In this document: positions 8,637 to 62,954 of the stretch, one piece after another
How positions within the stretch are numbered: the stretch's first letter is position 1
Layout of the letters: each line of letters begins with the position of its first letter
Virus record (IMG/VR): IMGVR_UViG_3300020192_000008
Coordinates: 32,001-96,000 of that record
From: a virus
DNA length: 64,000 nt
Strand: one strand, 5' to 3'
The notes under the pieces: model-generated
What the model was told of the DNA's origin: nothing
What the model saw: the letters and a program-made list of their open reading frames with translations, nothing else
The model's database searches: none
Position numbers and translations under genes: made by a program

Positions 8637-9194
8637 TCAGGTCGTGCCGTTACGGACGGCCCAACCCTGCATGAAACGCAGCTGACCGCTCGAGGGCAGC
8701 TTGGTGACGTATCCGACGACCGGGCCGTTGCTCGCGTAGCTCGAGCCGACGAGGCCCGAGAACTTGCGCGTGCCGCCCTCGGCCAGAGCGAGCGTGATGG
8801 TGCACACGCGCAGCGGCTGGAACAGCGTGGTGATGGCAGCGCCACCAGCCGCGCTCGACGCATCGTAGATGCGGGTGTTCCACTCGTACTGACCGAGCAT
8901 CAGCACGGGAACCTTCTTCTCGGCCGACGCCTGGATGTCGTACCGACCACGCTCAGCCCACAGGGGCATCGCGATGACAGTGGCCAGGGCGTCAGCAACG
9001 GTGACGTCGGTGGCGCGCTTGGCCTTGCCCTGCGAAGTACCCGGAGTCGAGTCGAGTGTGAGCCATTCGCCGTCGACAAGGCAAAGGGCGTTCATGGGGT
9101 TGACCAGCGTCGCATCAGCGAGCATCCAGTCACGACGGTGAGCCAGGTTGACGTCAGTCACAGGCTCGAAGTTGACCCTCTGGACAGTGGACAT
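8637..9194 (-). CDS. Probable capsid decoration/cement protein
   Basis: 185 aa, beta-rich, immediately upstream of MCP, with AGGAGA RBS. Confidence 0.5.
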   Translation of the reverse strand: MSTVQRVNFEPVTDVNLAHRRDWMLADATLVNPMNALCLVDGEWLTLDSTPGTSQGKAKRATDVTVADALATVIAMPLWAERGRYDIQASAEKKVPVLMLGQYEWNTRIYDASSAAGGAAITTLFQPLRVCTITLALAEGGTRKFSGLVGSSYASNGPVVGYVTKLPSSGQLRFMQGWAVRNGTT

Positions 9195-9232
9195 AGTATC
9201 TCTCCTGTTGAACTAGGCTTGGCTTCGAGCCG

Positions 9233-9604
9233 TAAGCCGATGGTTCCGTGAAGGAACCGAATGAAGTCGGACGCCCCTTCGGGCGCCTGCGTGTCGTTGT
9301 TACCGCCGACCAGATGGCCGATCTTCTCGCCCATGTTCGGGCCCACGAGATCAACCGCCGCAGCGATCTTCTCGAGCTTGCCCTCCTCGGCCGCCTTCTC
9401 CATCTGGGCGACTAGGCTCTCGTAGGGGACATCCGACTGGATGCCCTTCTCGTGCATCGCCGAAGCGACCTTCTCGGCCTCTTCGTGACGCATGCGGGCC
9501 TGGGCTTCCTTCTTCCAGAAGTCCCTTTCCCCGGCGAGTTGGGTGATCGCGGAAGCGCTCTTGGTGAGGAGGTCCTGGACCTGCGCGCTGCTCAGCTTGT
9601 TCAT
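9233..9604 (-). CDS. Small helical scaffold-like protein; ends at TTA (9233-9235)
   Basis: ATG 9604 with GGGGAG RBS; EKVAS, EKAAE and EKIAA motifs. In-frame TTA follows ...FLHGTIG. Reading it as Leu runs through the next gene's RBS and start. Confidence 0.65.
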
Positions 9605-9606
9605 GT

Positions 9607-11064
9607 TCAGCACTCCCCGCCGTCGAAGGCGTTCTTCTCGCGCCTGGGCGAATCTTTGCGCGTCTCTTTGTCCGCCTCGGAGGCGATCTTCTGGAGAAGC
9701 ATCTGGGCTGCCGCTTGCGCCGTCTGGTCAGAGGCGAGCTTGTGGCCAGCCTCTCCCGAGTGGGCGAACGCCTGCTGCAGCGTGGTGTCGGTGGCCTGCG
9801 TGAGAGCAGGCTCGTTGAAGTACTTGCCCAGCTCCGCTTTGCGGAGGCTGTAAGCCGAGTTGCGCTTGAGGTTGATGGCCGCCTCGTTCGAGGAGATCAT
9901 CGAGGTCTGGCTGCCGTAGCCGCCGGCGACAGGCTGACCGCCAGGCTCACCCGAGGCAGACGACTGGGGAGGCGTTGCCGCACCGCCGCCAGAGATCTGA
10001 GCCGGGTTGATGGCGTCTTCTGCCTGCTTGCGGAGACCGATGAGAGCATTGGCGAGAGACGCGCTCGCTGCCTTCTCCTCGGGCATCTCTTCATGGCGAG
10101 CGTTGAACGCCGTGTGGCCACCGAGAGCGCCAAGTGCGGTGTTGAGACCAACGCCGCCCTTGAGTGCGCCCATCGCAGCTTCACGAAGGTTGCCAGCACC
10201 CTGCATGCCCCGAAGAGCACCGATTGCCGAACCACCGAGAGCACCACGAGCAGCTGCGCCATCAGCCGAGTCAGCTCCGTAGCCGGCAAGAGCACCAGCC
10301 CCGCCGTATGCGAGACCCTTGCCGAGACCAGCAGCGGCACCACCGAGACCACCGAGTGCAGCTCCACCAGCTCCGCCCATGGCACCACGGCCAAGCATCG
10401 AAGCCTCGCTGCCCATCAGTCTCTCACCAAGAGCGCTGCCTGCTCCGCCCATGGCACCGAGGGCGCCACCTGCGAGAGCTCCACCACCAGCCCCGAGAGC
10501 GGCAGTCGTACCAGCTGAACGCATCACCGCGTTACGGAGACGCTCCGAGTCTTCCATCGCCTCTGGGTCTTCTTCCGCAACCTTCGACAGGGCGCGAGCA
10601 ACCTTCAGCTTCGCCGATGCGGTCTTGCCGCCACCGGAGAGAGCTGTCTGCTGCTGACCAGAACCGCCGGGGGGCGAGTCCATGGTGTTCTGCATCTGGT
10701 TGGCAGGGCCCGTGTTGGACGCCTGCATCCCCGGGTTCATCGGGGGCTGAGCGTGACCCTTGCCCTGGCCACCGGGGCCGGGGGGAGACTCACCACTCGT
10801 CGACTGGGAGACAGCGAGCGCGTTCGGGCCGGTACCAGGACCGATGTCCGAAGCCTGCTTGATCTGACCAGCCGCCCAGGCACATGCCTCCGCCAGCTTC
10901 TCAGCGTAGTCGGTGGGGATGCTCTGGTTGTCCTGCGTGTTGATGGGGGCAGCGGAAGCAGTCTTCTCGTGCCGAGCTGCCTCTGAGCGAACCATCCGCT
11001 CAGTAGCCCCTGCCATCGCTTCCTTGACGAGGTCTTGGAGCAGACCGCGATTGTGGGTTGGCAT
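9607..11064 (-). CDS. Putative scaffold/internal head protein with glycine-zipper insert
   Basis: 485 aa with at least 9 KxA motifs (EKTAS, EKLAE, IKQAS, GKTAS, SKVAE, EKAAS, RKQAE, HKLAS, QKIAS). Confidence 0.65.
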   Translation of the reverse strand: MPTHNRGLLQDLVKEAMAGATERMVRSEAARHEKTASAAPINTQDNQSIPTDYAEKLAEACAWAAGQIKQASDIGPGTGPNALAVSQSTSGESPPGPGGQGKGHAQPPMNPGMQASNTGPANQMQNTMDSPPGGSGQQQTALSGGGKTASAKLKVARALSKVAEEDPEAMEDSERLRNAVMRSAGTTAALGAGGGALAGGALGAMGGAGSALGERLMGSEASMLGRGAMGGAGGAALGGLGGAAAGLGKGLAYGGAGALAGYGADSADGAAARGALGGSAIGALRGMQGAGNLREAAMGALKGGVGLNTALGALGGHTAFNARHEEMPEEKAASASLANALIGLRKQAEDAINPAQISGGGAATPPQSSASGEPGGQPVAGGYGSQTSMISSNEAAINLKRNSAYSLRKAELGKYFNEPALTQATDTTLQQAFAHSGEAGHKLASDQTAQAAAQMLLQKIASEADKETRKDSPRREKNAFDGGEC

Positions 11065-11110
11065 TATTGATTCCTCTGAAGAAGTAGAGCGACGGTGGGG
11101 GGAGGTGGAG

Positions 11111-11140
11111 GAAGGGGCCGGGCTTTCACCCGGCCCCCTC
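11111..11140 (-). terminator. GC-rich hairpin with GAAA loop, weak terminator or processing site
   Basis: GGGGCCGGG (11114-11122)/CCCGGCCCC (11129-11137). The tail is C/U-rich rather than poly-U. Confidence 0.45.
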
Positions 11141-11148
11141 CTGGTCGA

Positions 11149-12003
11149 TCACTCGTTCCAGGTGACCGGGTAGCCGGCAGCCTCGAGCAGCTCGATCGAG
11201 CGGACATCAACCGCCGACTCGAGGTCGGGAGCCGAAGCCACCTTCACGCTGTCGCTCTCCGAGACGCCGAGGGTCAGCACCGAGAAGACACGCTGAGCGG
11301 CCTCGTCGGCATCCCAACCAGCCGACGCGGCCTTCTCGACCGCCAGCTCACTGGCCAGATCGTCGAGAGCCGAGCCCTCTTTGACCTTGTCGTGAACCTT
11401 CTTCGCGCCGTAGGCCGCACCGCCAGCAGCTGCTGCACCAGCGGCGTGAATAGCTGCACCAACCGCCTTGGACTTGCCCTCACTCGCTTTCCAGCCGGCC
11501 TTGTGGGACGTGCGGTCGGCTGCGTTCATCGCACGGCGACCAGTGGCCTCCATGTGCGTGGAGACCCCCTCGCTGACCCTCTTGCCGATGTGGCTGAGAG
11601 GCGCCTTGAGGCGATCGATGAACTTCGATCCGTCTGCTGGGGCCTTGCCGGCGATCTTGGTGAGCTCCTGGACGTAGGCATGAGCCATCACGCGACCGAG
11701 GTAGTCGGCTTCGGCAACCTTCGCCATGGCCTCCTTCTTCTCCTCGTGCTCTTCCTTCGCCTTCTCGACCTTCTCCTCTTTCTCCTCTTTCTCGCCCTCG
11801 TCCTCGGCGAGCTTGTTCATGTTCTCGACCCACTGGCCGTAGATGCCACGAACCTGGGCATCGGGCATCGAGTTGAGGTCGAGGCCATTGGCCTCTGCCG
11901 TCTTGACGAAGAGGTCGACGGAAGCGTCCTTCTCGAAGGCTTCCTGCTGGGCGCTGGAGTTGCCGGTTCCGTAGTGGGCGGCGAGGAGTTCGTTCATGCT
12001 CAT
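11149..12003 (-). CDS. Probable capsid scaffolding protein
   Basis: 284 aa with an acidic/charged helical tract (EGEKEEKEEKVEK) and many KxA motifs, directly downstream of the protease. Confidence 0.55.
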   Translation of the reverse strand: MSMNELLAAHYGTGNSSAQQEAFEKDASVDLFVKTAEANGLDLNSMPDAQVRGIYGQWVENMNKLAEDEGEKEEKEEKVEKAKEEHEEKKEAMAKVAEADYLGRVMAHAYVQELTKIAGKAPADGSKFIDRLKAPLSHIGKRVSEGVSTHMEATGRRAMNAADRTSHKAGWKASEGKSKAVGAAIHAAGAAAAGGAAYGAKKVHDKVKEGSALDDLASELAVEKAASAGWDADEAAQRVFSVLTLGVSESDSVKVASAPDLESAVDVRSIELLEAAGYPVTWNE

Positions 12004-12093
12004 GGTGGTGTCCCTTGGTTCTTGATCAGTTGAGGATTACGCGCTGCGTGTTCCTCGAGGGGGAACCCCTCTCCACGCCGGCTTTCGCCCGAG

Positions 12094-13743
12094 TTACAGA
12101 AGGCCCCCGTAGATGTCAGCGCCCAACTCGTCCCAGAAAGCGTCCCGCAGATAGTGGACCGTGAGGGGAGTGAAGAGCTGATCAACTGGTGCCGACGCCA
12201 GCTTACTGAACTCACTACCCCTTGGGGCAGATGCGTTCAGAAGTCCTTGTGCGCCGCTCACCAGATCCATGAGAGTTGTTCGGTACCCGTTGTAGGCAGC
12301 TCCTATCTTACGCAGCACTTCTGAGGGATGGGAAGAAGAGGCCCTCTTCTCACCCCCGTCGCTCTTCTTCATCACAAGTACACGATGCTCAATCGCAGGC
12401 GCGAGAGCAGAGCGTGATTCCATGAGAGGGAGAAGAAGTCTTGCAAGTGAAGGAAGGAAGGAAGCGTGGCCGAGAGACATACTCTCAGTATCTTTCGATC
12501 TGGGGAAGACGATGTTCCGACGATCAAAGTCGTCAGCCATGTCTCTCCGTCCGATCTGAATCAAGACGATACGCTGAAACTCCCTGGGACGAAGAACGAT
12601 GCCCAAACCACCAGAAGTAGACAGGGAGCTGGGCAGGTCATGTTTCCCGAGTGCATCAAGCACATCATCAGGCAAATCTTCTTCTTCTCTCGACAGAGTG
12701 GCCACCGCCTTGCCAGCGAACTGGCTCGGCACAATGTCCTTGATGATCTCACTCTTCTTGAGCTTCGCGTCCTTGTATTGGAACGCTTCCTTGAAGATTG
12801 ACTCGTTGAGAGAAGCCGTCTTTTCCCCAACGGTCATCTCGTCGTAGCCGAGCTTCTCCGCCTCATAGGCAGAAGAGCCGAACGAATAGACGCGCCCCTC
12901 AGACGCGATCTTCATCATCGTCTTGGCTGTCTTGTCAGCCCCGATGAAGACGAAAGAGATGTCGAAGAACTTCGGGAAGTCGTTGTAGACGTACACCTTC
13001 CGGCCATCGGCCAGAATCTTGTTCATCTGATTGCGAGCGTGCTCGCAATAGTCCTTCCGAGTGATCGACACGCCCCGGATAGGGGTCTTCTTATGGATGG
13101 CGAGGATGGCCTGGCCCGGAGACGCGTGCTTCTTCGGGTCGAAGGTGGCAGCCGCCTCGTGGTACCGCTTCCAATCGAGGCAGATGGAGCACGTATCGAA
13201 GGGCACCTTGCAGCCCATCGAGACATCCGGAAACATGCCCTGGCTGAGCTTGTCCCAGACCTGCGTGCCCCCGTACTCCTGGCACTTGAGCTTATCGACC
13301 CGAGTAACGAGCTCGACGCGCTTGAGCCTCGGGTGCCAGACAGCCAGCTCCACCTCACCGAAGGCGCGGCCTGCGTCCTTGTTGCGATGGTGGGCGTAGG
13401 GGTGGGCTGAATAGAAGGTCGGGTAGCCGTACGCCCAATCCTTCGCCTTGATCTTGTCGAGCAAAGGGTTGCCCGTCCAATCATCAGGGCGATGGATCAG
13501 GGCAGCTTCTGGGAAGTGATCGCCGTTGACATTGGAGCCGAAGAACTCTCCGGCCCCCATGGCATTGACGAGGTTGTACGCTGCATCATTCCGGGGCCTG
13601 AGCGACTCGATATACTTGACGACGTCAGGAAGAAGTGTGGCTGATGCGGTCTTCTCGAAGTACGCATCAGACGCTTTGTTGAAGAGCGGGATGACCGTTG
13701 GGCCAGTCTCGCTCTCACCCCAGTATGTGCAGAGCTTGTACAT
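12094..13743 (-). CDS. Prohead maturation protease
   Basis: 549 aa with NGDHF, HH.NKD..RAFG, DVSMGC.V...CSIC and FFDISFVFIGAD motifs, matching the His/Ser HK97-type prohead protease layout. KxA sites flank the domain. Ends at TAA. Confidence 0.75.
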   Translation of the reverse strand: MYKLCTYWGESETGPTVIPLFNKASDAYFEKTASATLLPDVVKYIESLRPRNDAAYNLVNAMGAGEFFGSNVNGDHFPEAALIHRPDDWTGNPLLDKIKAKDWAYGYPTFYSAHPYAHHRNKDAGRAFGEVELAVWHPRLKRVELVTRVDKLKCQEYGGTQVWDKLSQGMFPDVSMGCKVPFDTCSICLDWKRYHEAAATFDPKKHASPGQAILAIHKKTPIRGVSITRKDYCEHARNQMNKILADGRKVYVYNDFPKFFDISFVFIGADKTAKTMMKIASEGRVYSFGSSAYEAEKLGYDEMTVGEKTASLNESIFKEAFQYKDAKLKKSEIIKDIVPSQFAGKAVATLSREEEDLPDDVLDALGKHDLPSSLSTSGGLGIVLRPREFQRIVLIQIGRRDMADDFDRRNIVFPRSKDTESMSLGHASFLPSLARLLLPLMESRSALAPAIEHRVLVMKKSDGGEKRASSSHPSEVLRKIGAAYNGYRTTLMDLVSGAQGLLNASAPRGSEFSKLASAPVDQLFTPLTVHYLRDAFWDELGADIYGGLL

Positions 13744-14282
13744 AAGGGGCCCTGACCGCCCTTGTTGTTGCGGCGCTGGTAGGGCTTGGCGACGACCTTG
13801 GGCTTGAGCGACTCGGCGAACGAGTTACCTGCGTGCTCACCACCCCTACGCCACGAATCAGCCATGGGGGACTTGAACTTGTCGGAGGCCGACAGGCTCT
13901 CGGTGAGGATGCCACCGGCTGACATGGGGTTGTCGGCCATGCGGCGCAGATAGGTCCCGGCGACGATCGGGTCCTTGGCGAAGTTCGGATTCATGTTCCG
14001 AAGCGACGAGTACATCTGGTTGAACATCTTCGGGTCGCGCTCGTGATGCTCATGCAGGTCCGGGTTCAGTTCCAAGATCTGCTTGAAGTCGTGCGACTTG
14101 GTGGCCGCATCGTAGATCTTGCCAGCGGCCATGCCGGCGCCGGCGAAGGCAACTCCGGCAGCAGCCATCCCAAGACCCTGCGTCATCGCATGGCCGAAGC
14201 CCTTGGCAGCTTCACCACCGAAGGCGACCTTCTCCTGGGGCTCGCCGTACTGGGCGTAGAAGTCATCGAGGGGGTTAGACAT
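13743..14282 (-). CDS. Virion protein (179 aa); ends at TTA overlapping the protease ATG
   Basis: EKVAF plus a hydrophobic segment. In-frame TTA at 13743-13745 forms TTATG with the next start. Confidence 0.65.
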
Positions 14283-15478
14283 CAGCCGCCTCCGCTCTGG
14301 AGCATCTGCTCGAGGTAGTTGTGCTCTTGCGTCCCAGGGATGGCGGCCAGCGTTTGGTACTTCGCCTTCTGGAACGTGGGGTCGTACTTGAGGTTCCGGC
14401 GGTAGGCCTCGTGGGCCAAGACAGCGGGGGCAGCGACAGCGCCGACTTGGGCTGCAGTGCCGAAGCCCTGGCCTTTGCCCTTACCCATGAGCACTTCACC
14501 GACAGCCCTGCCCCCCTTGCCCGCGTACTCGACGCCCTTCTTGGCAGCGTTGACGCCCTTCATGAGCAGGCCTTCACTGGCTGCTCGCTTCACGAAGGAG
14601 GTGAGCACGTCGAGGTTGTCCTTGACGTAGTCGCGCTCTGTTCGGAGGGAGGCCACCTTGGTCAGCACTTCGCAGTAGTCCTGGAAGTCTTTGATCAGAG
14701 GGTGCTCGGGGTTGGGGTTACCAACCGAGGCCGTCTTCTCGATCGACTCGACCATGTCTACCTGCGAGCGGAAGACACCGTTCTCCATCAGCTCCGGGAG
14801 GACCTGACGGAAGGCGACCTTCACGTACTCACCCGTAGGCGCGAAGTTCTCCCAGATCTGAGCGACCTCGCCGAGGCTGTGACCAGAGAGGGCAGCCTGC
14901 TTGACGTTGTAGAAGTTCCTCGTTCGGAGGTCGTCGTACATCGTCTCGAGGCCGGAGATATGAGCGGTCAGGCTCTCGTAGGAGGAGGCGAGCTTGTCGC
15001 GCAGGGCAATAGCATCACCGAGGGGGTTCTCGTCTGGCAGGGCACTGGCCTCCTTGCCGAACATGTCCTCGAGCTCTCGCTCATGAAAACGCGATGCCTT
15101 CTTCTCCTTGGCAGGAGGGGGCTGGCTGTAGTCGCTCGAGCCACGGCTGAAGTGGGCAACGCCGGCGCTCTTGTTGAGCTCCTGCAGAACGTACCCAGGG
15201 CTCGCCGGCTCCTGGCCGCCGAAGTCCACGACCTTGTGGCCAGCCTCGCCGGCTTTGGAGAACTCGGTGAGGTAGGCGTCCGTGTTGGCGAACTCAACAA
15301 CACGCTTGATCTGTTCGGCCGACAGACTCGCTGTCTTCACGGTCTGTACGACCGCCTCGTTGAGAGTGGAGTATCGCCCCTCGGACCAGCGCGCAGCCGC
15401 GTGCTTGCCCAGAACCTGGAGCTGCTCGCCGTCCATTCGGCGAGCCTTCATCTGCTGCAGCAAACCGTGGTCTGACAT
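14282..15478 (-). CDS. Putative internal head protein
   Basis: 398 aa with about 10 KxA motifs and AAGGAG RBS. First gene of this minus-strand unit. Confidence 0.65.
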   Translation of the reverse strand: MSDHGLLQQMKARRMDGEQLQVLGKHAAARWSEGRYSTLNEAVVQTVKTASLSAEQIKRVVEFANTDAYLTEFSKAGEAGHKVVDFGGQEPASPGYVLQELNKSAGVAHFSRGSSDYSQPPPAKEKKASRFHERELEDMFGKEASALPDENPLGDAIALRDKLASSYESLTAHISGLETMYDDLRTRNFYNVKQAALSGHSLGEVAQIWENFAPTGEYVKVAFRQVLPELMENGVFRSQVDMVESIEKTASVGNPNPEHPLIKDFQDYCEVLTKVASLRTERDYVKDNLDVLTSFVKRAASEGLLMKGVNAAKKGVEYAGKGGRAVGEVLMGKGKGQGFGTAAQVGAVAAPAVLAHEAYRRNLKYDPTFQKAKYQTLAAIPGTQEHNYLEQMLQSGGG

Positions 15479-15514
15479 TCACTGCTCCTTCAAGAATCCG
15501 TTACAAGAAGTACC

Positions 15515-16210
15515 ATGGATAAAAAACTCATGGGAAGCTGGCCCCGGCTGGTCTCCGTGCTGGAAGCAGCCGAGATGCTTTCGGTTTCTGTCGATCAAGT
15601 CCATCGCTGGAACCGGGATGGTCTACTAGAGGCTGAGTACCCAGAGGGAAGAAGAGGGGGGAAGTACTTCCAGACGGAAGACATCCAGACCCTCATAGAA
15701 GCTCGGGCCAGCAAGACGCTCTCTGACCATGATGTGAAGATTCTAGCCCTTCAGTCTCTGGTCTCCTCCAAGAGGGCAGAACGAAAACTCGATGAGCTGC
15801 TTGGGATGCTCGGTGTTTCGGACGTGAAGCTCGGTACCTCGAGGGAGGAGGTCTTGGCTTTCTTCGTCGAGGTAGAGGACGAGATCAAGGAGGGTGAGCC
15901 GCTCCTACCCGAGGAGGCGATCGGCTGGGCCAAGCGGATGCTGGGCATCACCGAGGAGTACCTGGAGCTAGTGAAGGAGCACACGTTCATGCTCGAGCCC
16001 TGGGTCCCGTACATGCAGCTCTCCAAGAAGCTGCACGACAAGTTCCCAGCAGGGCAGGCAGGGGCCTACCTCTCTCACGCCATCCGTAATCTTCGGCACA
16101 CGGCGTACTTCTACGTGCGTCGGGCGGATGGGGTGAGAGAGGCGACGAAGCGCTTTCCCGAGGGTGGCGTGACGAGCCAGCTCCTCGGGATCATGTTTCC
16201 GAAGAGCTAA
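15515..16210 (+). CDS. MerR/excisionase-type HTH DNA-binding protein
   Basis: LVSVLEAAEMLSVSVDQVHRWNRDGLL...F..EDI is a typical MerR/HTH_17 signature. Lone plus-strand gene in the virion module; the start may be ATG 15530. Confidence 0.7.
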   Translation: MDKKLMGSWPRLVSVLEAAEMLSVSVDQVHRWNRDGLLEAEYPEGRRGGKYFQTEDIQTLIEARASKTLSDHDVKILALQSLVSSKRAERKLDELLGMLGVSDVKLGTSREEVLAFFVEVEDEIKEGEPLLPEEAIGWAKRMLGITEEYLELVKEHTFMLEPWVPYMQLSKKLHDKFPAGQAGAYLSHAIRNLRHTAYFYVRRADGVREATKRFPEGGVTSQLLGIMFPKS

Positions 16211-19108
16211 CCCTTGGTTCGTTGGCCCCGAGTAACCGCCGAGGTTGGGGCCACCGCTCCGAGCGTTCTCTTTCTTCGGGGTGATGATGTCCGGCCTGGG
16301 GTGGATGATCATCGAGCCAACGAAGCAGTAGATGATAGAGTGCAACGCATCATCAGGCCGATCGGGCCTGTGCTGGTACTGGATCATGTGAAGAGACTGG
16401 TTGTACTCTGTGAAGATGTTCAGGATGTCTTGCCCGAACGGCTCACGGAACTCTTCCCACCTGGGGAACATGATCTGCTTGCGCTTGATGGCCGTGAAGA
16501 CATCGCTCACGACTTCCGTCTTGTGCACCTTCCAACGCTGCAGCTTACCGTCCCACTCGACCTTCTTCTTGTTACGGGCCATGTACTGGAAGCGGTGCAC
16601 GCGCTGGGTGCCGAAGCGACGGATCAAGTAGGCGTTGTTGTTGAAGCCACCGCCGTAGTCGCACCCGATGATGCGGACGTTGTACGCATGCAGGATGCGC
16701 TTGATCTTCTCGAGCTGGATCTCAGGGTCCGTGTCTTCACCCGTGAAGCGGTGGATGAAGAAGATCTTGAACTTCATCCCGTCGTAGTAGCCGAGACTCA
16801 TGACCGTGTAGCTGTTCTCGCCCGTGTTACCTTGGTACGCGATGCTTCCGTTACGCTCTGTGACGATGTACCCCGAAGGCACGGCGCAGCAGTACACCTT
16901 GCCCGCATAGGGGACGTGCTTCACCGCCGTGGAGGGGGTGTTGAACTGGTAGTCTCGGCCCTCCGACCACAAGGCTCTCCAGCGCGTCTTCCGGTTCCCC
17001 TCCGCAGGCTTGTGCAGCTTCACGGAGCACCGAAGACCGAGCTTTATGCAGATCTCCTGGAAGTCCTCGCACAGCCCTTTTGACGTCGAATAGAAGGCCC
17101 CTCCTGTGCAGCCCTCCCGAGGGTCCGTGTAACCGTCTCCGTCTACCAGGGCCTGAAACAAGATCCGAAGCTGCCTTTGGCCGAGGCCGAGGAACTCCCG
17201 TGGGATACGCTTCTCGTCCCCTTCGACCCCTACGTTCTGGGCGTACCACGCCCAGTACTGCTTGCCGTAAATGGTCCAGTTGACGTCCCCAGTCTTTGGG
17301 TTCGGGAACGCCTTGAACGAGACCCCCACCCGGTCGAGAGACGCCTGCATCTTGAGGTAGGTCTCGTGGTTGACCGTCTCCCTCTGCGACATCTTGAGGC
17401 AGGACGGGCGGCCCCCATCAAAGCAGACCCCGCCCTCTGTCACGAGATAGCCGAGTAGCTCCAACCAGTCGTCCATGGGGACGGTCTTGTCCTCAGAGCC
17501 CTTGTACCCAGGGCTCGTCGGCAGCCCCGGCAGCGTGAAGGCCTGCTTCTCCTCTCCTTGCCAGTCGACGTAGCCCACGAACTTGACGTTGCCGCCCCGT
17601 TCTACGAGTTCGCCCGCCGACTCGGTGAGCCACCGCTCTCCCTGGGAAGTCCCGACACGCATGCGGTGCGTATGGGTGATCATCAGATCGAGCCCCCCCT
17701 TGGTCTCGAAGTGTAGAAGTGGCTGGTCCCAGTCGCGTACCGTACGAACCTTCGGAGCCACGAAGGTCATCGCACGCGTTTCTGGATCCCACTGGGCTAC
17801 CTTGTCTTCGTCGGTGAGATCACAGAAGTACTTGAAGCCAGACTGCGTAAGAATGCGTGTCTTGTCATCGTGACAGCCCCAGTCGATGCCAGCGAAGATG
17901 TTGCCGGCGGTAGCCGTCTTGCGGATCTTCTCGAGGGCCGTGGGGTGCATCGTCAGCTTGGGGTCGCATGACTCCTTCAGCTGGCCCATGGTGATGGGCC
18001 GGAGGCCTGAGTCGTAAGACATCCCCAAGACTTCGTTGTAGAACTTGTCGCGGGGGTACCGCTCGTAGTCGAGCAGGATTTCCTCCCACGACCGCCAAGG
18101 CACCATCAGCTGGGGGATGCGGTAGCTCTCGAAGACCCCGTCACGGACCTGGTTGATCCACTTCGAGTCCTTGTGCATGGGGTCGATCTTCCCCCCGCAC
18201 TTCTCGCAGATGAGGCTCTTCTTACCGATGTTCTTCTCGCAGAGGATGTTCCAGTGCCGGCCAGCACCGCCACCAACGGAGGACCCGCAGTGGTCGCACG
18301 GCACCATCCACTCACCCTGCGTCGACATCGGGCGGCCCTTGGCCACGCCTGACCGGTAGAACTCGATGGGGTTGTCGAGCCCTTTGGGTGTGCCGGCGTA
18401 GATGAAGCGCTTGAACTTCTCCGGAGCGTGGCTTGTGCACTGCTCGATGACGGGGATGTTGTCGGCGAGAATGTCTTGGAGCTCGTCGAGGGTGAGCAGC
18501 CAGGCTGGGATGCCTCGGGTACGGTCGGCGTTGAGGAACGCATACCTCAAGGTGATCTTCGCCCGGTTGACGAACTGCTTCTCGAAGATGTTCTGCGACA
18601 GCATGGTCGTCGTGAACGTCTTCAAGACCTGGCTCGTCTCGATGGGCTCCTTGATACGGTCGACCGAGAAGACCTTCGTCTGCGTGGCTGACGGGCTCAC
18701 GTACAGCGTCTTGTACGCCGGCACGACGCACGAGTACGAGAGCATGATGTTGCCGATCATGGTCGACTTCTCGACCTGCCGGCCACAGAACAGGAGCACG
18801 CGCCTGGCTGGGGTGTTGTAGGGGCGGCGCATGTGCCGACGCCCCTCAAACGTGAAGTTCTCGTACCCCATACCGTCCTGCCGAGGCATCCGGAAGGCGA
18901 ACTCGGTGAACTGGCTGGGCAGGACAGCGGGGATCTTGACCGCTGCCCTGCGCTTCTCCTCTATCTCCCAGAAGTCCTCGAAGGGCTCTGGCTCAGGGAG
19001 CCAGGGCTTGCCGTTGTGCATCCTTCGGAGTTCTTCGTCTGTGAACTCTTCAGGCTCGAGGTCCTCTTCAGAAGGGACCGTGACGGGGTCAGGCTGGAAG
19101 CTGCTCAC
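16208..19108 (-). CDS. terL: Terminase large subunit (lambda GpA-like) with intein; ends at TTA
   Basis: GRQVEKST (Walker A variant), LTLDELQD (Walker B), GTP motif, CxxC...CxxC, GIDWG nuclease motif and C-terminal PDDALH. In-frame TTA at 16208-16210. Confidence 0.85.
16826..17875 (-). mobile_element. Intein with LAGLIDADG homing endonuclease in TerL (350 aa)
   Basis: Junctions GIDWG|CHDDKTRILT ... NGSIAYQGN|TGEN. Block B THTHRM; LAGLIDADG motifs LLGYLVTEGG and FQALVDGDG. Confidence 0.88.
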
Positions 19109-19527
19109 AGGCTCTTGATCTTCGCTTCGATGGCTTCGTCGAGCTTCTCGAGGAACTTGTCAGCGTAAGCATCGAGGTCGAGGATGTGCCCGAAGCCATC
19201 AGCCTGAAACCACCAAGAGTCGACTTCTTGCGTGTAGGCCGCACGCAGCCGTGGGTAGGCTGCGTTGAAGAACTCCATGGACGCATCCGAGAGCACCTCG
19301 GGGAAGAGGTACCTCCAGTAGTACCCCACCCTCGCGCCCAGATGCTGGATGTCTTTCACCTGGTAGAAGTGGAAGATAAGGCTTCCCTCGTGGATGCAGA
19401 CTTCTCCGATGAAGGTCGTGTAGTCCTCGACCTTACGGAAGGTCTTCGCCCTCACCCCCTGCTCCTCCTCCATCGAGAGGCGACCCTTCGCTTCCGTCTC
19501 CGTCATCTGCTCCGGCTGGTAGTTCAT
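19105..19527 (-). CDS. Hypothetical protein
   Basis: Up to 140 aa, GTGA-coupled to terL. The true start may be a later Met. Confidence 0.6.
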   Translation of the reverse strand: MNYQPEQMTETEAKGRLSMEEEQGVRAKTFRKVEDYTTFIGEVCIHEGSLIFHFYQVKDIQHLGARVGYYWRYLFPEVLSDASMEFFNAAYPRLRAAYTQEVDSWWFQADGFGHILDLDAYADKFLEKLDEAIEAKIKSL

Positions 19528-20443
19528 GGTGTTCCTCGAGGAGGTTCATATCCATCGTGTGGTTGCCCTGCGTCACGTCATCGACGAAGGGCAGCTCAGC
19601 CGTGTCGTTACGAAGGGCGATGGAAGCAAGCTGCTCCCTGAGATCCTCGTCTGGCTTGACGATGGCTTCCAACGTGTCGGTGATCTTGGCGACACCGTTG
19701 GTGTAGTTGATGTACTTTTCCGAATCCTTCGGACCGTTGTTGTACGCCGACTCGAACGCTCTGAGGGCACCGATGTACCTGCCTGCTTCAAGAATCTTGG
19801 CCAAGTCGAGCTTGGAAGGCATCGTCCCAAGACGCATCTGGGACAGCAGGGCTGATAGAGGCGAGAAGGGCAGGTCAGCTGCAGTCCTTCTGGCATCTGT
19901 GTAGAACGCGCGCTTGAGCGAGTCGTGCTGGCTGCGAATGCCCTCTTCAGTGTGGCTGGCTACCTGGTCTACCTCGAACTGCAGAAGAGCTCGCATCTCG
20001 GTAGAGTCGAGCAGGTCCACATCCCAGAAGAAGAACTTGTAGCGGGCTACCTCCTGCTCGGTGCAGGCGAAGCCCTTCTGCCTGGTGAGGGCGTGGGCGA
20101 TAGCAGCAGGCGGGGCCGATGAGAGAATCATCGCCTCGGTGAACTCTTTGATCCTCGGCGACTTGAGGATGCCCATGGCACCCATCACCGACTGGTCTGG
20201 ATGGAAGAGCGTGTAGAGCCCGTTCTTCAGTAGCCACCGCACAGACAAGGGATGGTTCTTGTCGTGCGGGAAGAACTGAGGAGGAGGCTTGAGCTCTCCA
20301 CGCAGACGATCGAGGTACCAGAAGCCCAGACTGGAGATCTGAGCGAACTGGCACATCACGATGATCTGATCGTTCGTGTACTTCTTGCCATGGCAGAGCA
20401 GGTACTTGAGGTACCTCTCTGCCGGCGAGCGCCTGATGATCAC
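19433..20443 (-). CDS. Hypothetical protein, candidate terminase small subunit
   Basis: 336-aa helical protein just upstream of terL, GTG start. Function is inferred from position only. Confidence 0.45.
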   Translation of the reverse strand: MIIRRSPAERYLKYLLCHGKKYTNDQIIVMCQFAQISSLGFWYLDRLRGELKPPPQFFPHDKNHPLSVRWLLKNGLYTLFHPDQSVMGAMGILKSPRIKEFTEAMILSSAPPAAIAHALTRQKGFACTEQEVARYKFFFWDVDLLDSTEMRALLQFEVDQVASHTEEGIRSQHDSLKRAFYTDARRTAADLPFSPLSALLSQMRLGTMPSKLDLAKILEAGRYIGALRAFESAYNNGPKDSEKYINYTNGVAKITDTLEAIVKPDEDLREQLASIALRNDTAELPFVDDVTQGNHTMDMNLLEEHHELPAGADDGDGSEGSPLDGGGAGGEGEDLP

Positions 20444-20450
20444 CTAAGGC

Positions 20451-22628
20451 TAACGCCTGCTGGAACGCCAGCGTCTTGAGACCCTCGATGACATCCTCGA
20501 GGTACTTCACGCACTTCTCGAGAGGGCCCTGGGGGATTTTCGAGAGCCCGAGCCTCGACGACATCAGCAGCTCACAGAGCTTCGCCTGCGTGCTGTTGAT
20601 CTCCGGCAGGTAGGAGACGAACGTGTGGATGTTCTCGGGGTTCACGAAGCCGATGGAGAGGATCGTGTCGACCGAGGTGGGGTCGGGGATGAAGGCCGCC
20701 TCCTTGAAGAGGTTGCGCTTGAGGTCGAAGGCGGGGCTCGAAGCGAGCTTCTCCTGGGACTTCCTGCGCGAGGCCATCTTCACCGACTCGGCAGGCTGGA
20801 TGTGCCGGCCCACCCGGACGTCGACCGGCATGCCATGGGCAATCGCCTGGGCAAGCTTCGTCTGGGCGTAGCCGAGGTCTGTACCCAGGCCACCCAACAG
20901 GAAGAGCGAGTCGTCGAACGACAGGAAGTGCTTCTCGTCAGACGCCAGCTTGTCGATGGGGAAGCCCTCGAACGAGAAGCTGTTGACGCCCCCCGCCCTC
21001 ACGGTCACCGAAGCAAGCTTCCGCTGGGCGTGCGCCACCTTGTTCCCGCCCTCAGGGGCGCTCACCAGGACAACGCTTTCGGCCTTGCCCATGCCCATCC
21101 ACTTGTAGTCCTTGGGCAGGAGGAACGTACCCTCATCAGCCTGGGTGGGCTTCTGGATGTTGGGCTGCAGAGAGACTGTGCACTCGCGACCATCGTAGGT
21201 CTCGACGTGCAGCTTCTGCTCCCCGTCCGTGACCTTCCCCTTGATGGTCATGGGGATGGTCGCCTCTGTCTCGTCACCACTCTGACGAACGAACACGCCG
21301 GTGCCCGTGGGGGAACCGAACATGAGCTCGCCGTTGGTGCTCTGCAGGCTACCGGCGATCTCCGGCTGCACAGCCGCCGCCGACCCGTTCGTGAACAGGG
21401 CGATGGGCAGAACTGTGCCGTCGAGGTCAGTCAGGTTGGGGAATACGAGCCCCATCATCTCGGTGCCCTCCTCGTTCTGCACCTTGTACGTGCCGAACTC
21501 GGTGATGGGCTTGAGGTCTGCCAGCGGGGCGCCTTCACCCACGGCATCGTCAGTGACGGTGACCGAGCCATGCTCATCGGCATCCTGGGCGAGCTTCACC
21601 CCGAAGTGCTTGATGATGTCGCCTCGGCTGACGGAGTGAGCCTCCTTGACCTGCCAGTACTTGTGGTTCGCCTCCTTGACCCGGTAGCCCACGTTCTCCT
21701 TCGAGACCTGGATGACCGAGGGGCGGATGGCGCTCTCCATCGAGGAAGCCACCTTCTCGCTGGTCACCTGGTTGGTGTTCCAGATCTTGTTGATGGAGGG
21801 GAGGGTGGCGTGGGCGTTCTTCACGTACGCCTGTTGAACCCCAACGTCCTTCATCTCGTGGGCGAAGGAAGTAAGGTCGGAGCTCAGTGCTGTCGGAAGG
21901 ATGGCCTCGAGCAGAGAGGCTGACTTCTCCACACCAGTCAGGTCATGACCCGAGGTCTTGAGGTCAGACTCGTTCGGGTCCTTCTTGAAGCCCTTGAGCT
22001 TCTTGGCATCGACACCAAGCACCTTCGACAGGCGCTCTGCGAACTGCGCCTTGTTCTTGTCTTCGGCCGTCTTGGTCTCAACGTGCAGCTGCTCACGCAG
22101 GTAGTACTCGAGATCTGAGCTGGTCTTGCCCATCATCCCGCCGGCGCCACCCATGCCGCTGCCATCCCGGTGGGGCGGGTAGATCTGACTGGCCATCGAC
22201 GTGTCACCTGGCGTCTTGCTGGTGACATCGAAGGTCTGTGGGCGGAAGAGGGCTTCCTTCAGACGCCGCTCGGTGAGGGGAAGAACCTTCGAGTCACCAG
22301 TAACGATGAGGTCGAGGGGCTGAAGCTTCTTGTCCTTGACCACCACCGGGATGCGAACCGACTTCACGCCCACGGCGTCCTTGGCCTGGTCGCTTGCGCC
22401 TTGCTGCAGCTCGGTCTTGTTGGAGATCTCAATGTGGCCGAATGCAAAGCCACGCTCACCATCGATTCGATCCATCACCGTGTGAGGCTCGAAGTCCGAG
22501 ATGAAGGGGATCTGCTTGTACGCTTCCTGCAAGATCTCCTGCGACCACTGGTTCGGGTCTTCAGGAAGAACAGTCTCAGCGGCCGTCTTCTGGATCGGCA
22601 GGATGGAGTCGAGGTAGAGGTTCGTCAT
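20451..22628 (-). CDS. Large virion protein with many KxA motifs (725 aa); ends at TTA
   Basis: Two in-frame TTA codons (20451-20453, 20445-20447) lie just before the next GTG start at 20443. The standard code gives a ~500-nt overlap. Confidence 0.7.
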
Positions 22629-24492: not shown

Positions 24493-27400
24493 CAGTAGCT
24501 GTGCTCCGACACGTTCTCGAGGTGCTTGTAGCCAGGCAGCTTCGACTGGTTCTTGTTCAGACCAAACTCAGCGCCGTAGGCAATCGCGGGGATCGGGTGG
24601 CTGCCGTGCAAGTTGCTCTTCGACCGCATGGCTGCGCCCTCGGCGATGGTGTCGCGGAGGTTGCGGTGCTGCAGCTTCGCCATCCAGTCTTCCTGCAGTT
24701 CGAGGGGCATCATGTTGACGCCCTTCAGAACAGGGGTGTGCTCGATGGGCTTCTTGCCCGCTTTGGCCAGGTCGTTGTTCATCTTCTGCACCATGCTCAG
24801 GGGCTGGAACTCGCCGCGCAGAATGCCCTCTGAGTCCCCAGGATGCACGACCTTCGTGAGGTTTGACATGGCTTTGACGACTACTTCGACATGGCGGCGC
24901 TTGATGCCCTCGTCCTTGTAGAGGGAGTACATCTCGCTTACGAGGTGGTTCTGCACCTTGTCGATGGAGCCAGTGGCCTTGTAGAGGTCGTGCGGGTTGA
25001 GCACGGTTCGGTGGGGGTCGGACAGAGACTGCCCAGCCTCGATGTGGTCACCGATCTTGGGGGGCGCCCAGCTGAGCAGGTTCTCCTGGCCTGGCAGCAG
25101 GTGGTGCAGAGGCATGCCTGTCTGGTCCTTGCCGACATGGTGAGGGCGCTTGCCGACCCACACGTTCACGCCCGTCGCTGTGTTCTCCACCTTCTCCACC
25201 TTGCCCGAGACCATGGCCAGGGAGGCCGCGTTGGGGATCTTCTGGGGGAGCATGGCGAGCTGCTCGAAGCGGCCGAAGCCCGACACAGCGGCTGAGGCAC
25301 CACCGGCGACACCGCCAGTGTGGAACTCCTTCATGGTGAGCTGCACGGCTCGCTCACCGAGCGTGTGGCTTGAGAGCACCCCGATGTTGTCGCCGATGTT
25401 GTGCATGTGGCCAGTTGAAGACAGGCCTACGCACTTCTGGCAGATGCCCTTCTCATGCTCACACCGCAGCGGGCTACGCACCACGATCTTGGCATTCTTA
25501 TCGGCGGCCTTGATCTGCGCGACCTTGTCGGGGGTGAGCAGCTCCCCGGCCTTGATGTGTACGTGCCCAGCCTTGAAGTCGGAAGCCAGCAGGCGATCGT
25601 GTACATCCTTCTCGTTGATGTGCAGAGAGATGCCCCTGGTCGTCCCGCAGTCGGGCTGGGTCACGAGGATGTCCATCGTGTTGTTCTGCAGCAGCTTGGA
25701 CATGTAGCCAGGTTCCTGGGTCTCCTGAACCTTCATGACCGAGCCCCTGCGAGCTCCGTGCATCTGCGTCCAGTACCCGGCCATATCGAGGCCTTCGGAG
25801 TAGCTCTTCGTAACAGGCAGCGGGATGACCCTGTTGTTCGCGTCCGTGAGCAGCATGGGCGCAATCTTCATCTGCTTGTACTGAGCCCACGACGGCTTAG
25901 CCCCAGCCTTGTACATGATGTACAAGTTGTCCATCTTCTTGTCGGCTTCGATCTTGTGGGCGTCGCCGATCTCCTTGTCGGCCTTCATGTAGATGTCAAC
26001 GATACGACGCTCCTTGTCGTTCTTGTTGACCCTACTAGCCCGAACAGCATCCGCCTCCTTGTGAGCGCCGACGAGCACCTTGTCTCGACCGATCTTGTCC
26101 GTCTGGAAGTCGGCAAGAGAGAGCGTGTGCATGCCCGTGGGTACGAAGATGTTCTTCTTCGGATCGTTGATGTTGTGAACACCAACGTTAGGCATGGGCA
26201 CGGTCACCGTGCCGAAAGCCGAGTGGTTGCCCACGTCCTTCAACATGTTGACTGACTTGTCGAACTGATCCTTGTGGTCTTTGCCGAGCTTGGTGAGCAG
26301 TGACTCAAGGCCCTTCTTATCGATACGCATCTCCAGGTTGTGGAGAAGGTCTGCTTGCATGCCGAGCGGCATGGTAGTAGCGAGAAGAACCCGGCCAGCG
26401 GTCGTCTTCTTACCGTTGAGAGAGACCACGTCGTTGTAGTGGAACTTGCCCCCTCGCACGGCGTCAAGGATGTCGCCAGGAGTCTTGAACGTATGGCTCG
26501 TTTCTTTACCAACCATCGAAAGCTTGTAGAGCCCGATGGCCGAGTCGAGGGTGGGGATGAACGCCACCCGCCCCGTGTTCTCCATGAAGATATTGTTCGA
26601 CGGCTTCATGCGGTGCGCTTCGGCAACCGCGTCCCTGTGGATGGGGACGAAGACGCTCATGGTGTCTCCGTCGAAGTCGGCGTTGAACCCACCGCAGACA
26701 AGCGGATGGATCTTGATGGCGTTGCCCTCTACACGCTTAGCCTGAAATCCCTGCACGTTGTACTTGTGAAGGGCGGGGTCACGCTTGAGCAGGATAGGTC
26801 GCTCTTCCATCACGGAGTCGAGGGCCTTGATGACGCTGGGATGATCTTTCTTCGTAAGGAGCTTCTGCGCGTCGAGAGGGTTCGATGCCGCACCCATCTC
26901 CTGAAGCTTCTTGACGATGAAGGGGCGAAACAGATCAAGCGCGTGGTCCTTCGGGAGACCGACCTCATCAAGCCCCAGCGAGGGCTCTGGGACGATGGTC
27001 GAGCGCATGGTCAGGTCCTGCCGCTTCTGGACGACGGACTTCTGGAAGTACCCGTTCTTCGGGGAGGCACCGGAAATCTGATGAAGGAGCCCCTTGTGCT
27101 TTGCCTGAGCGTAGGGGACGTGTATCCCGATGACAGCCTTGACGCCGTCGTAGTAGTTCTGACGAAGCTCCTTCTTCATCTCGTCGGTCAAGTGCCGCGC
27201 CAGCGTCGGGTCCTTGAGCTTATCGTTGACAAGGGCGAACTCCGAGTACAGCTGGTTGATGTCGGCGTACTTGATGTTGCCATCAGCCATCGGGGACGCC
27301 GGCCGAAGGACTGGTGGGATGATGGGCATCTTCGTCATTACGTAGGCTTCTGATGCGCCTACGCCCAACTGATCGAGAGCCCTGAGGTACTTCACCTTCT

Positions 27401-30400
27401 TCAAGACCGGGTCAACCTTGGCCATGGGAACGGAGTTGAGCTCCTTCATCCCGGCGGCCAGGTCCTTCTTCACGTCGACCTTCGAGAGCAGGTGCTGGAT
27501 GGCCCGACCACCGGTGTGGGCTGCGTCCTTGAGCTCGACGATCTTCCCCTGGTGGTTGATGCCCGACTCGCCGTGAACGATGGCGTCGAAGTCCTTCTGG
27601 GTCAGGCCCGTGAGACTGCGGATGGGGGCCTCGAACACTGGGTTCGGCACCGGCTCTGCGAGATCGATGTGGCTCCACTTGATGCCGCCGTGCCCACCGG
27701 TGAGCTTCTCATCAAAGAGACCACCAGGCCTGGGCTTGAGCTCACCGGACTTGTCGACCTTGGCTTCGAGGCGTTCAGCTGGCTTGGGCAGGGCCCTGCC
27801 AGCCGAGAGCTCCATCACATGCTTGTCCGTCAGGGGCGAGAGGATGAGCTCGTGGCCCTTCTTCTCGATGTTCACCCCTGAGCCCTTGAGCATGTCCTCG
27901 AACTTCTTGAAGGCGAAGGTGCTCTTGGGCGTGGGCAGAGGAGCGCCTGTCTGGATGGCGTTCCACACCTGCAGGTGCTGGCTTGGCCACTTCTTGCTCT
28001 CGTTGGTCTGGGGGTCTTCACCCTCCCCCTTCCACGTCTGCATCTCCCGGATGTTCGCCTTCGCCCCGTGGGCAAGCAGGGCGTACATACCGAGTGAACC
28101 GATGCGCTGACCTGAGCCGGGCTGCAGGTTCTGGTCATAGCGGTCACGGTTGGGTTGACCTGGAAGGCCCATGCCCGAAGCCACGGTGACCTTCTTGTCG
28201 ACCTGGTGAACCAGCTTGAGGATGTGCTGGTGACCCGTCATGGCATGCCCCAGTGATTGCCCCGTGACCGGGTCGATGAGCTCCTCGGTGTCGTGCAGGC
28301 CGTGGCTCTTCAGCTCCGCCTGCACCTTCGCCACCATGTCGACGTCCTTCTGAAAGGCCTGAACGACGTAGGGCTTACCCGTCTTGATGGCGATCTTCGA
28401 CGCTGCCGTCTCGAGCAGTTGGCTCACATTCATACGACCAGGCACGCCCGTGGGGTTGAGCGCTACCTCGATGGGCTTGCCATCCTTGCTGTGGGGCATC
28501 TCATGGTCGGGCAGAACCATGGTGACAATGCCCTTGTTGCCGTACCGACCGGCGAGCTTGTCGCCTGACTGCATGGGCTCGTGCGTCTTGACGTGTACCT
28601 GCAGGCCACCCTTGCCATTGGTGACAGAGACAACTTCCCCCTCAACCTCTCCCTCCCAGCGCAGGGACTTGTCGGCATGGCTGCCGGCCAGAGACTTGCG
28701 GATGGCCGAGACACCCGTCCTGTCCTTGAGCTCGAAGGGCTTCATGGCCAGGGCCAGGGGATCTCCAGGGGTGACCTTGGAGCCAACCTTGATGACGCCG
28801 TCGTCACCGAAGTTGACCAGCTGCTCCTTCTTGTAGACCCCGGGGTGTTGGATCTGAAACTTGCGGGTGCTCAGGATGGTGTCGGTGTCGACGGGCACCG
28901 TGTGCTTGTGCAAGTGCATCGAGGCGAGCTTCTTGGAAGCCGTCTCGCTGATGACAACGCCGTCCTCGAAGTTGTACCCCTTGAAGGGGATGAAGGCGAC
29001 GCGCAGGTTTGAGCCAAGCGCGAGAACGCCATCCTTCGAGTAGTTGGTGTCAGCGACTGTCTCGCCCTTCTTCACCTTGTCACCCACCTTCACAAGAGCG
29101 CTCGAGTGGAGCACGCTCTTCGTGTCATTGGTCGGGTAGTGGTTGTAGAGAGGGACGTCGTGCTTGTCGCCGTTCTTGTCCTTGATGACGATGTTGTCAG
29201 CGTGGATTGAATGCACGACACCATCAGCCGTTGCTTGGTGCGAAGCCTGGCTGCCAAGCACGGCCTCGAAGCTCTGAAGGCCTGGCGTGTAGACGCCGGT
29301 GCCCACCTGAACGAGAGGCGCTTCTCGGTTGACGAGGGAGATAGACTGCTCGATGTGGCGGGTGGCCATCGACACGCGGTTGCCCGAGCAGTTGTTCATG
29401 AACGGCACGAGGTTCGATGTCATGTTGAACACCTGGCTCGAGTGCTTCATGACGTAGTGGGCATCCTTGAAGGGGATGGGGCCCATGTCGTTGTCGTCTT
29501 GGGCGGCCTGCACCGTCTTGCTCAGTGGGACCGGCTTGCCGTTCTCCCACTTCACCTGGTCTGCCAGCACCACGCTTGACTTCATGAACAGAGCAGGGGG
29601 GACCAAGTCCATCTTGCCCGTCTTGAGGTTGTACAGGGGGACAACAGGATCGTTACCCAGCTTCCGTACACCGAGAGGCAAGCGCAACGTCACGCCAGTC
29701 TTCGAGCCTTCGGGCGTGTTCACGGGATCGAGAAAGCCGAAGTGGCTCTTGTTGAGCATCTTCGCTTCGTTGGTGACAGCCTGCTCACTCTGGATGCCGC
29801 CCGAACCCATGATGGTAGTCTGCATTGCAGAGCTCATCATCTCGACCGGGTTGATCTGAGAAGCCACACGAGCTGCAGAGTTCTTGTGGAACGACTGCTT
29901 GATCGGCTCGTTGAACATCTCGAGCTTTACGATCTCCCTGATGTCGCTCTTCGAGTTGATGTTCCTCGATGCCTTCATGGCGATGGTTCGACCAGCCGCC
30001 TTGATCTTGTCGTGGGCGAAGTCTCCAGCTGAACGCAGGTCCTTGAAGATGAGGCTGTCCCGGTCATCCTCTGGGTGACCCGCCTGCACCTTGAGCATCT
30101 TCTGCGTCGCCAGGTGCAAGGCCTCACCACTCACGTGATCGATGGGCTTGCCCAGCGTGACGGACGTAGCGTCAGTACGCATCTTCGAGTTCTGCATCGC
30201 CTCGAAGAAGTGCGTCTCAGCAACCTCCTTCGAGATAGGTGCCTCTTTGCGGTCTGACTTGTAGAAGCGCTCGAGCGTACCGGCGGCACCACGGGCATTC
30301 TTGTTGGCCGCGAAGATCTCTTTGCCCCAGCTCTTCTCGAGATCGTCGTCAGAGATGCCCATCGTCTTGATGAGCGGATAGAGCGGCAGTTTGCTCTTGT

Positions 30401-62866: not shown

Positions 62867-62954
62867 CTTCAACTCCTTCTCCCAGCTTCTCTAGCTCGGC
62901 TTTCGCATCATCCATCTCTCGCTGAAACCACGGCTTGCTGTTTTCATCCGCCAT
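62853..62954 (-). CDS. Small acidic peptide (33 aa) starting in a TTATG overlap
   Basis: AAGGAG RBS 5 nt upstream; MADENSKPWFQREMDDAKAELEKLGEGVEDGTT; TAA stop. Confidence 0.55.
   Translation of the reverse strand: MADENSKPWFQREMDDAKAELEKLGEGVEDGTT

Follow-up and report, generated by a model that had tools for sequence, protein, structure and literature searches.

In bacterial and phage operons, the stop/start overlaps TGATG, TAATG and ATGA give translational coupling. Phages can also depart from the standard genetic code: Lak and crAss-like phages recode the stop TAG or TGA as an amino acid, and to our knowledge every known code change in bacteria and phages turns a stop or sense codon into another amino acid. 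Reports of a change from sense to stop are limited to mitochondria and, since 2025, plastids, the mitochondrial code of labyrinthuleans and Thraustochytrium being NCBI table 23. The available part of the organellar study (PMC12574857) describes UUA as a stop in labyrinthulean/Thraustochytrium mitochondria, UUA and UCA in peDinoflagellate plastids, and UUA and UUG in the mitochondria of Marsupiomonadales and Pseudoscourfieldia; it connects these UUA stops with an altered release factor (an RF2 Ser204 substitution or mtRF1a) and calls the plastid case the first sense-to-stop change outside mitochondria. Here we analyse a TTATG motif on the minus strand, at positions 13741-13745 of a 64,000-nt window comprising bases 32001-96000 of a single virus record, IMGVR_UViG_3300020192_000008 (107,272 bp, 60% GC, CheckV completeness 58%). 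In this motif a TTA stands where one phage gene is expected to end, and shares a base with the ATG of the next.

The genome of this phage resembles the organellar UUA codes, as far as the available part of PMC12574857 describes them, in that the codon is missing from coding sequence, occurs at the stop positions of homologs and is used beside canonical stops; the comparative argument that we apply to a phage is also the same as the one made there. It differs from them in belonging to an uncultured tailed phage of bacteria, with 60% GC and a 107-kb record. In the literature searched we found UUA published as a stop for organelles only, and a full-text search, which covered few subscription journals, returned no report of UUA or TTA as a stop in bacteria or phages. 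The "TTA stop codon" of PMC10291192 was considered as a precedent and set aside, because in the accessible portion of that paper it is an antiSMASH label for rare TTA codons and involves no code change. We think it likely that UUA ends translation in the cell where this phage replicates, and that TTATG is functionally equal to the TGATG, TAATG and ATGA overlaps. On the simplest account, the release factor of the host would then recognise UUA, the host would lack a leucine tRNA with anticodon UAA, and ribosomes terminating at UUA would restart at the overlapping AUG, coupling the translation of the two genes; the TTA ends could have been derived from TAA by a single A-to-T change.

The plus-strand letters CATAA at 13741-13745 read TTATG on the minus strand, on which both genes lie. 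The upstream gene, encoding a 179-amino-acid (aa) protein of no family, occupies 13746..14282 with its ATG start at 14282, and the TTA at 13743..13745 is codon 180 of its frame. Base 13743 is common to this triplet and to the ATG (13741..13743) of a 549-aa gene, which extends over 12097..13743 to a TAA stop at 12094-12096, so the sharing of one base claimed in the initial annotation of the window is correct. As in usual stop/start coupling, the last base of the stop also begins the ATG that follows, and the window also uses TGATG; the same geometry, with a canonical stop, joins a 398-aa gene to the 179-aa gene (14282..14286, minus strand). What differs from usual coupling is that the stop is TTA, with reinitiation presumed. 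Among the TGATG parallels that had been drawn, those at 2585, 14282, 24492 and 38982 are real gene junctions, whereas the one at 51024 opens a 36-codon open reading frame (ORF) only.

Read with table 11, the upstream ORF extends to 261 aa, up to a TGA at 13497-13499, and the two genes overlap by 13743-13497+1 = 247 nt, the figure first given. The 81 codons of this read-through tail (13500..13742, minus strand) lie in the +1 frame of the 549-aa gene and are not coding in the upstream frame. Across the TTA, the GC content of the upstream frame drops from 0.83 to 0.56 at third codon positions (GC3) and rises from 0.45 to 0.70 at second positions (GC2), while serine, arginine, threonine and proline together go from 0.20 to 0.57 of the residues. 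Since this composition matches the +1 frame of a GC-rich gene, the tail is off-frame and junk-like, as the initial annotation had it.

The same junction was compared in 70 related loci, 65 of them from IMG/VR, four from contigs of metagenome-assembled genomes (MAGs) and one from a metagenome; several loci are nearly identical to one another, and a single contig supplied both L001 and L042. The MAG contigs were found by scanning contigs with an alignment of the 549-aa gene's homologs, and a single relative, 56% identical, came from the scan of metagenome contigs. At 66 loci both genes were scorable, the other four being without one gene or its N-terminal alignment. The upstream gene ends in TGA, TAA or TAG at 66/66 scorable loci: nine have TGATG (one of these, L063, with a mis-set start), three TAATG, 16 a four-nucleotide NTGA overlap, 36 a spacer of 1-12 nt and two a spacer of 20-24 nt. 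The stops of the relatives thus range from a 4-nt overlap to 24 nt ahead of the next start, and none overlaps by more than 4 nt. In 12 of the 66 loci (TGATG or TAATG) the third base of the stop doubles as the first base of the start. A canonical stop at the junction in related genomes had been predicted, and it is present in every scorable one. The particular contribution of this junction is a TTA in a stop/start overlap, in a conserved place that TGATG, TAATG or ATGA occupies in relatives.

Homologs of the upstream protein lead to the same end point. There are 36 at E<=0.001, mostly of 152-177 aa, which share a conserved core but differ in the length of the C-terminal tail; the closest (56-64% identity) measure 161-168 aa and terminate no more than about 20 residues from the TTA position. 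Homologs conserving the LCTSSAHTG extension would have spoken against a gene end at the TTA, and we looked for them: this tail is absent from all 29 aligned homologs, which leaves the proposed end unrefuted. Twelve tblastn alignments seemed to span the TTA; 11 cross an in-frame stop at the junction in the relative and therefore reflect, out of frame, the similarity of the conserved next gene. In the twelfth (L063) the tail is longer, of low similarity and unrelated. In one relative, L122, TTA codes for the nearly invariant Leu76 of the same upstream protein. The TTA at 13745..13743 is the functional end of the 179-aa gene, and the comparison supports a junction with the geometry of the TGATG and TAATG couplings.

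The behaviour of TTA across the genome was followed in 116 long GC3-rich ORFs (34,150 codons) called with table 11 on the whole 107-kb record. TTA is the rarest codon, with 19 in-frame occurrences at a median relative position of 0.84, whereas 12 of 13 other rare codons checked have medians of 0.44-0.59. Each in-frame TTA either precedes a likely start or marks a fall in GC3, from about 0.85 to 0.35-0.65, apart from an ambiguous one at genome position 7992. With TTA taken as a stop, the 116 genes end in TGA (67), TTA (17), TAG (16) and TAA (16), and those ending in TTA include terminase, DnaB-like helicase, primase and ThyX, structural and replication genes alike. Position-specific base composition predicts 97 in-frame TTA codons within these genes, and the depletion of the rarest other NNA codon predicts 28, against 0 observed, although this zero is in part circular, TTA having served as a stop in the calling of these genes. 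Support that is not circular comes from the placement of TTA at GC3 transitions and from the stop positions of relatives. Alignments of relatives end one residue before the window's TTA, with a canonical stop immediately after; the offset has a median of 0 aa in each of three genes, namely the terminase (63 hits), the gene at 9236-9613 (54 hits) and the gene at 20454-22628 (23 hits).

In the relatives, TTA is a rare sense codon (101 in 183,836 codons, or 0.55 per 1000), distributed over the length of genes and flanked on either side by coding-like GC3; in the window's genome, we see no TTA with clearly coding sequence on both sides. Two of the TTA ends have a particular arrangement. The triplet at 16208-16210 serves two convergent genes, as the TAA of a plus-strand MerR/HTH-like gene (15515-16210) and as the TTA of the minus-strand terminase, and the terminases of relatives end exactly at the residue matching it. 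At 20445-20453 on the minus strand, a tandem TTA GCC TTA closes a 725-aa gene, the proteins of relatives ending at the first TTA and the next gene beginning 7 nt later.

These triplets are natural sequence and not assembly errors. A 10-kb stretch is present in five microbial-mat runs from five studies, one of which is the probable source, and in no listed RNA run; contigs of four mat runs from four studies were compared over window positions 9001-21000, a comparison limited by the fact that contigs lose rare variants. One contig (X2) spans 10354-21000 with nine substitutions and one deletion, and two others (X3, X4) cover parts. The TTA triplets at 9233-9235, 13743-13745, 16208-16210 and 20445-20453 show zero differences wherever the runs cover them, and the one at 13743-13745 is covered and unchanged in X2 and X3, which represent two further studies. 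Both of these contigs carry a strain difference, A>G at 13722, 21 nt from this triplet; it replaces Trp8 by Arg in the 549-aa protein, where the relative L001 has Arg too, and is synonymous in the frame of the tail. An adapter-like loose end suggests short-read (Nextera-type), Illumina-based libraries.

Thus it is barely credible that the TTA is an ordinary leucine codon within a 261-aa protein, an error of sequencing or assembly, or a TAA only recently mutated to TTA. Table 11 does leave the 261-aa frame open, and TAA and TTA are one base change apart. On the other side, the tail is off-frame in composition and unconserved, 17 gene ends are alike with no TTA flanked by clear coding sequence, the triplet is kept in the contigs of two other studies with single-nucleotide differences nearby, and other phages of the family show the same pattern.

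The TTATG overlap is the most mechanistically informative piece of this pattern, as its architecture needs a ribosome to finish and release. In the window's genome TG comes next at six of the 17 TTA ends, against a frequency of 0.067 for this dinucleotide (binomial P = 6e-4); the same stop/start geometry is found at 14 of 101 canonical stops pooled, against which TTATG is still enriched (P = 0.02). Separated by codon, it occurs at 10-12 of 67-69 TGA, 0/16 TAA and 2/16 TAG stops. Five of the six TTATG motifs open coding-like ORFs, of 61, 225, 549, 322 and 385 codons, where the 61-codon ORF is ribbon-helix-helix-like by eye only and the 322-codon ORF is the primase, with a zinc-ribbon domain from residue 5. 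The remaining motif, at 62952-62956 on the minus strand, ends a ThyX-like gene and opens a 33-codon ORF (MADENSKPWF...) that may be a small gene or chance. At 47396-47401 on the plus strand the motif is TTATGA: the TTA of the primase is followed directly by an in-frame TGA, which makes this end uninformative on the meaning of TTA, and the ATG between them starts the 385-aa gene. In an independent and distant relative, G007 (140 of its 162 kb analysed), 33 of 140 genes called in the same way end in TTA, eight of these ends are TTATG, and six open ORFs.

In our view, the strongest argument at hand for ribosomes finishing at UUA is the excess of TTATG at real starts, and we infer termination followed by reinitiation in preference to stalling with independent initiation. 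The proposal of termination-reinitiation at UUA made in the initial annotation is therefore partly supported: its gene end and geometry are borne out, and reinitiation in place of stalling is presumed.

A different use of UUA is known from Streptomyces, where this rare codon has a control role (bldA), and the available text of PMC10732093 proposes UUA-triggered bypassing in the terminase of phage Hau3. As in those cases, to the extent that they are described there, the system is GC-rich, uses UUA very rarely and has it at special sites in phage genes, a terminase among them; in Hau3, according to the same text, it lies inside one gene before a short gap, proposed to be skipped by ribosomes, whereas here it lies at the ends of separate genes, with nothing to be rejoined. 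By analogy, UUA could be a hungry codon that induces a -1 slip on C-CCC-TTA, or bypassing of the Hau3 type, fusing the 179-aa and 549-aa proteins. The local sequence lends itself to slippage, since a C precedes the P-site CCC and tRNA-Pro could re-pair perfectly in the -1 frame, which is that of the 549-aa protein; the bypassing proposed for phage terminase genes is the precedent. However, we find no split of the bypassing type, in which two ORF pieces match one continuous protein of a relative: in each of the 66 scorable relatives the two genes are separate and end in canonical stops. The other TTATG junctions are without a slippery P-site codon (they have CCG, GGT, CTG, GTC and TCG), no matching landing codon is found nearby, and the 16 other TTA ends share no common slip motif. 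Recoding is thus highly improbable.

Several observations weigh against termination at UUA by a host factor, besides the circularity already mentioned. At the upstream gene itself, the TTA has a median offset of +16 aa from the ends of relatives (10th-90th percentile -25 to +101), as the variable C-terminal tail of this protein makes a residue-for-residue alignment impossible. A putative weak Shine-Dalgarno-like motif, AGGG, lies at 13750..13753 on the minus strand, 7-10 nt 5' of the ATG, and its presence makes initiation of the 549-aa gene without coupling possible. Its duplex is -7.5 kcal/mol with a generic anti-Shine-Dalgarno sequence; across the junction classes, such signals are weak throughout (median -4.4 kcal/mol). 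It could be, then, that UUA is merely unassigned, with ribosomes stalling there until rescue or slow near-cognate release, and the next gene starting via AGGG. TTA-free gene bodies fit an unreadable codon equally well, and no release factor (RF-1 or PCRF domain) was found in five phage records or among 106 phage proteins. This alternative is nonetheless unlikely: 17 of the 116 genes end in TTA, about as many as in TAA (16); a ribosome stalled on TTATG would sit on the overlapping AUG, whereas real starts show an excess of this motif (5-6 of 17 here, 6-8 of 33 in G007); and rescue by tmRNA tags proteins for degradation.

The remaining points that count against a host with a changed code concern the decoding factors. 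The window's record contains no tRNA and no Rfam match, and neither a suppressor tRNA nor a release factor was found in it; with the record 58% complete, a phage-encoded factor is possible. One MAG, G001, holds the related contig L066, which has TTA ends, although this link rests on binning. Its release factors are ordinary, with the motifs PVT in RF1 and SPF in RF2, and in a sample of about 46,700 codons it has 13 in-frame TTA, two of them of the end type on the phage contig and 11 inside bacterial genes, for example in the C-terminus of a MurA-like protein. G001 was accordingly rejected as a changed-code host, on account of its normal RF1 and RF2 motifs and its reading of TTA as leucine. Since it reads TTA as leucine, it is probably not the host; either it is mis-binned or not the host, or it is a standard-code host able to carry such a phage.

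The distant relative G007, the one with most TTA ends, encodes a 74-nt tRNA with anticodon UAA (L098:9856-9929; anticodon loop CUUAAUC, 51 bits to RF00005). The short variable arm, U37 and a C-C mismatch closing the anticodon stem give it a shape that is not that of a normal leucine tRNA. Judging from its anticodon it could read UUA, which counts against UUA as a fixed stop and keeps alive a phage-driven or switchable reading of this codon. Here there is a resemblance to the recoded Lak and crAss-like phages, as table 11 misreads the genome and a relative has a tRNA with the matching anticodon; unlike in those phages, the direction of change is from sense to stop, and no in-frame canonical stops are seen in the window's genome.

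Rather than being a property of the host, the change could thus be imposed by the phage in infected cells only, through a factor of its own that sequence does not reveal or through phage-driven loss of the host's UUA-reading tRNA, with the UAA-anticodon tRNA possibly serving as a switch. Room for such a factor is left by the roughly 70% of phage proteins without an assigned family and by the incomplete record, and both the G007 tRNA and the leucine reading and normal RF2 of G001 are in keeping with it. We regard an imposed change as quite unlikely all the same, because the five phage records have no RF-1 or PCRF domain and the window's genome has no tRNA or Rfam RNA. Moreover, TTA also ends replication genes, so that early genes would need the factor before its synthesis, and G001 is connected with its phage by binning only.

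Returning to UUA as a stop in the host cell, we can ask how the trait is distributed among related phages. TTA is found at homologous stops, with none in the aligned gene bodies, in L033/L065/L066 (two ends), in L061, whose terminase ends in TTA at the same position as the window's, and in L034/G007; L027 probably belongs with these phages. Other members (L013, L018, L019-23, L040 and others) have 10-21 body TTA per approximately 3000 aligned codons and canonical ends only. A quick maximum-likelihood tree (IQ-TREE) built on the 549-aa protein places the window in one starred clade together with L002, L005, L067 and L068, four relatives free of body TTA. Another starred clade unites L065, L061 and L027 with L036 and L046, which likewise lack body TTA. 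As the trait follows lineages in the tree, we read it as following hosts.

The closest relatives of the window, G005 (L002) and G006 (L005), have three in-frame TTA each, in 13,600 and 25,300 codons, respectively. All of these are in junk-looking frames, which suggests that TTA is avoided in these phages and unused as a stop. A conserved cluster of odd tRNA-like genes (L093:272-503) is found in relatives with TTA ends, in L033, L065, L066 and L027 as well. One of its members has a 4-nt anticodon loop in the Rfam alignment and another is called as His with anticodon ATG, and in the L033 group an 82-nt "Ala(TGC)" lies in between these genes.

The 549-aa gene has a well-supported start. Its N-terminus, M-x-K-x-x-x-[FYH]...PLF...FEK, is kept from residue 1 in 20/20 homologs examined, so the ATG at 13743..13741 is a real start. 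The gene has zero TTA codons, and homologs in relatives carry up to seven. Neither the 179-aa nor the 549-aa protein has a family in Pfam or PHROGs, and a profile search with the latter against PDB gave no match (none at E<=1). The label of prohead protease that the 549-aa protein had been given is consequently unconfirmed: the Peptidase S77, S78 and S80 clusters that Atlas suggests, at feature scores of 0.88-0.89, are weak leads only, and an AlphaFold2 model built from 13 sequences is unusable (mean pLDDT 44). The gene lies between those for the terminase and the major head protein, a position compatible with this function, which the protein may have. Insertions in the form of inteins, some 370-450 aa in size, are found in the 549-aa homologs of L001, L007, L008, L013, L037 and L043; the window's own gene, unlike these, is free of an intein.

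Judged on its gene content, the record is that of a large tailed phage. The terminase (16211-19108, minus strand) bears an intein with a LAGLIDADG-type insert, the family A DNA polymerase (48631-51021) has a match to an intein-splicing domain, and inteins are common in the phage family. A fused beta/beta-prime RNA polymerase of 2126 aa (24495-30872, minus strand) contains Rpb2 domains 3 and 6 and Rpb1 domains 2 and 5, and its gene has a TGATG overlap at its end. Other genes encode a major head protein, a DnaB-like helicase, a primase, a RecA-like protein, RusA, ribonucleotide reductase and ThyX. Megablast of window positions 12000-20000 against phage records gave no match.

If UUA is indeed a stop in the cells where these phages replicate, they would provide the first case outside organelles of a sense codon turned into a stop. 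Standard gene callers would mis-annotate about one in seven genes of this genome, with false extensions, overlaps and fused genes, and the mis-annotation would extend to at least three further phage lineages. The TTATG overlaps would mean that termination at UUA is efficient enough to support termination-reinitiation coupling, like that at UGA. The finding would also predict a host lineage with a changed release factor and without a leucine tRNA, and we would give about even chances to the fuller picture, in which an uncultured bacterial lineage of the mats and several of its large RNA-polymerase-encoding phages use UUA as a fourth stop codon by means of an altered release factor.

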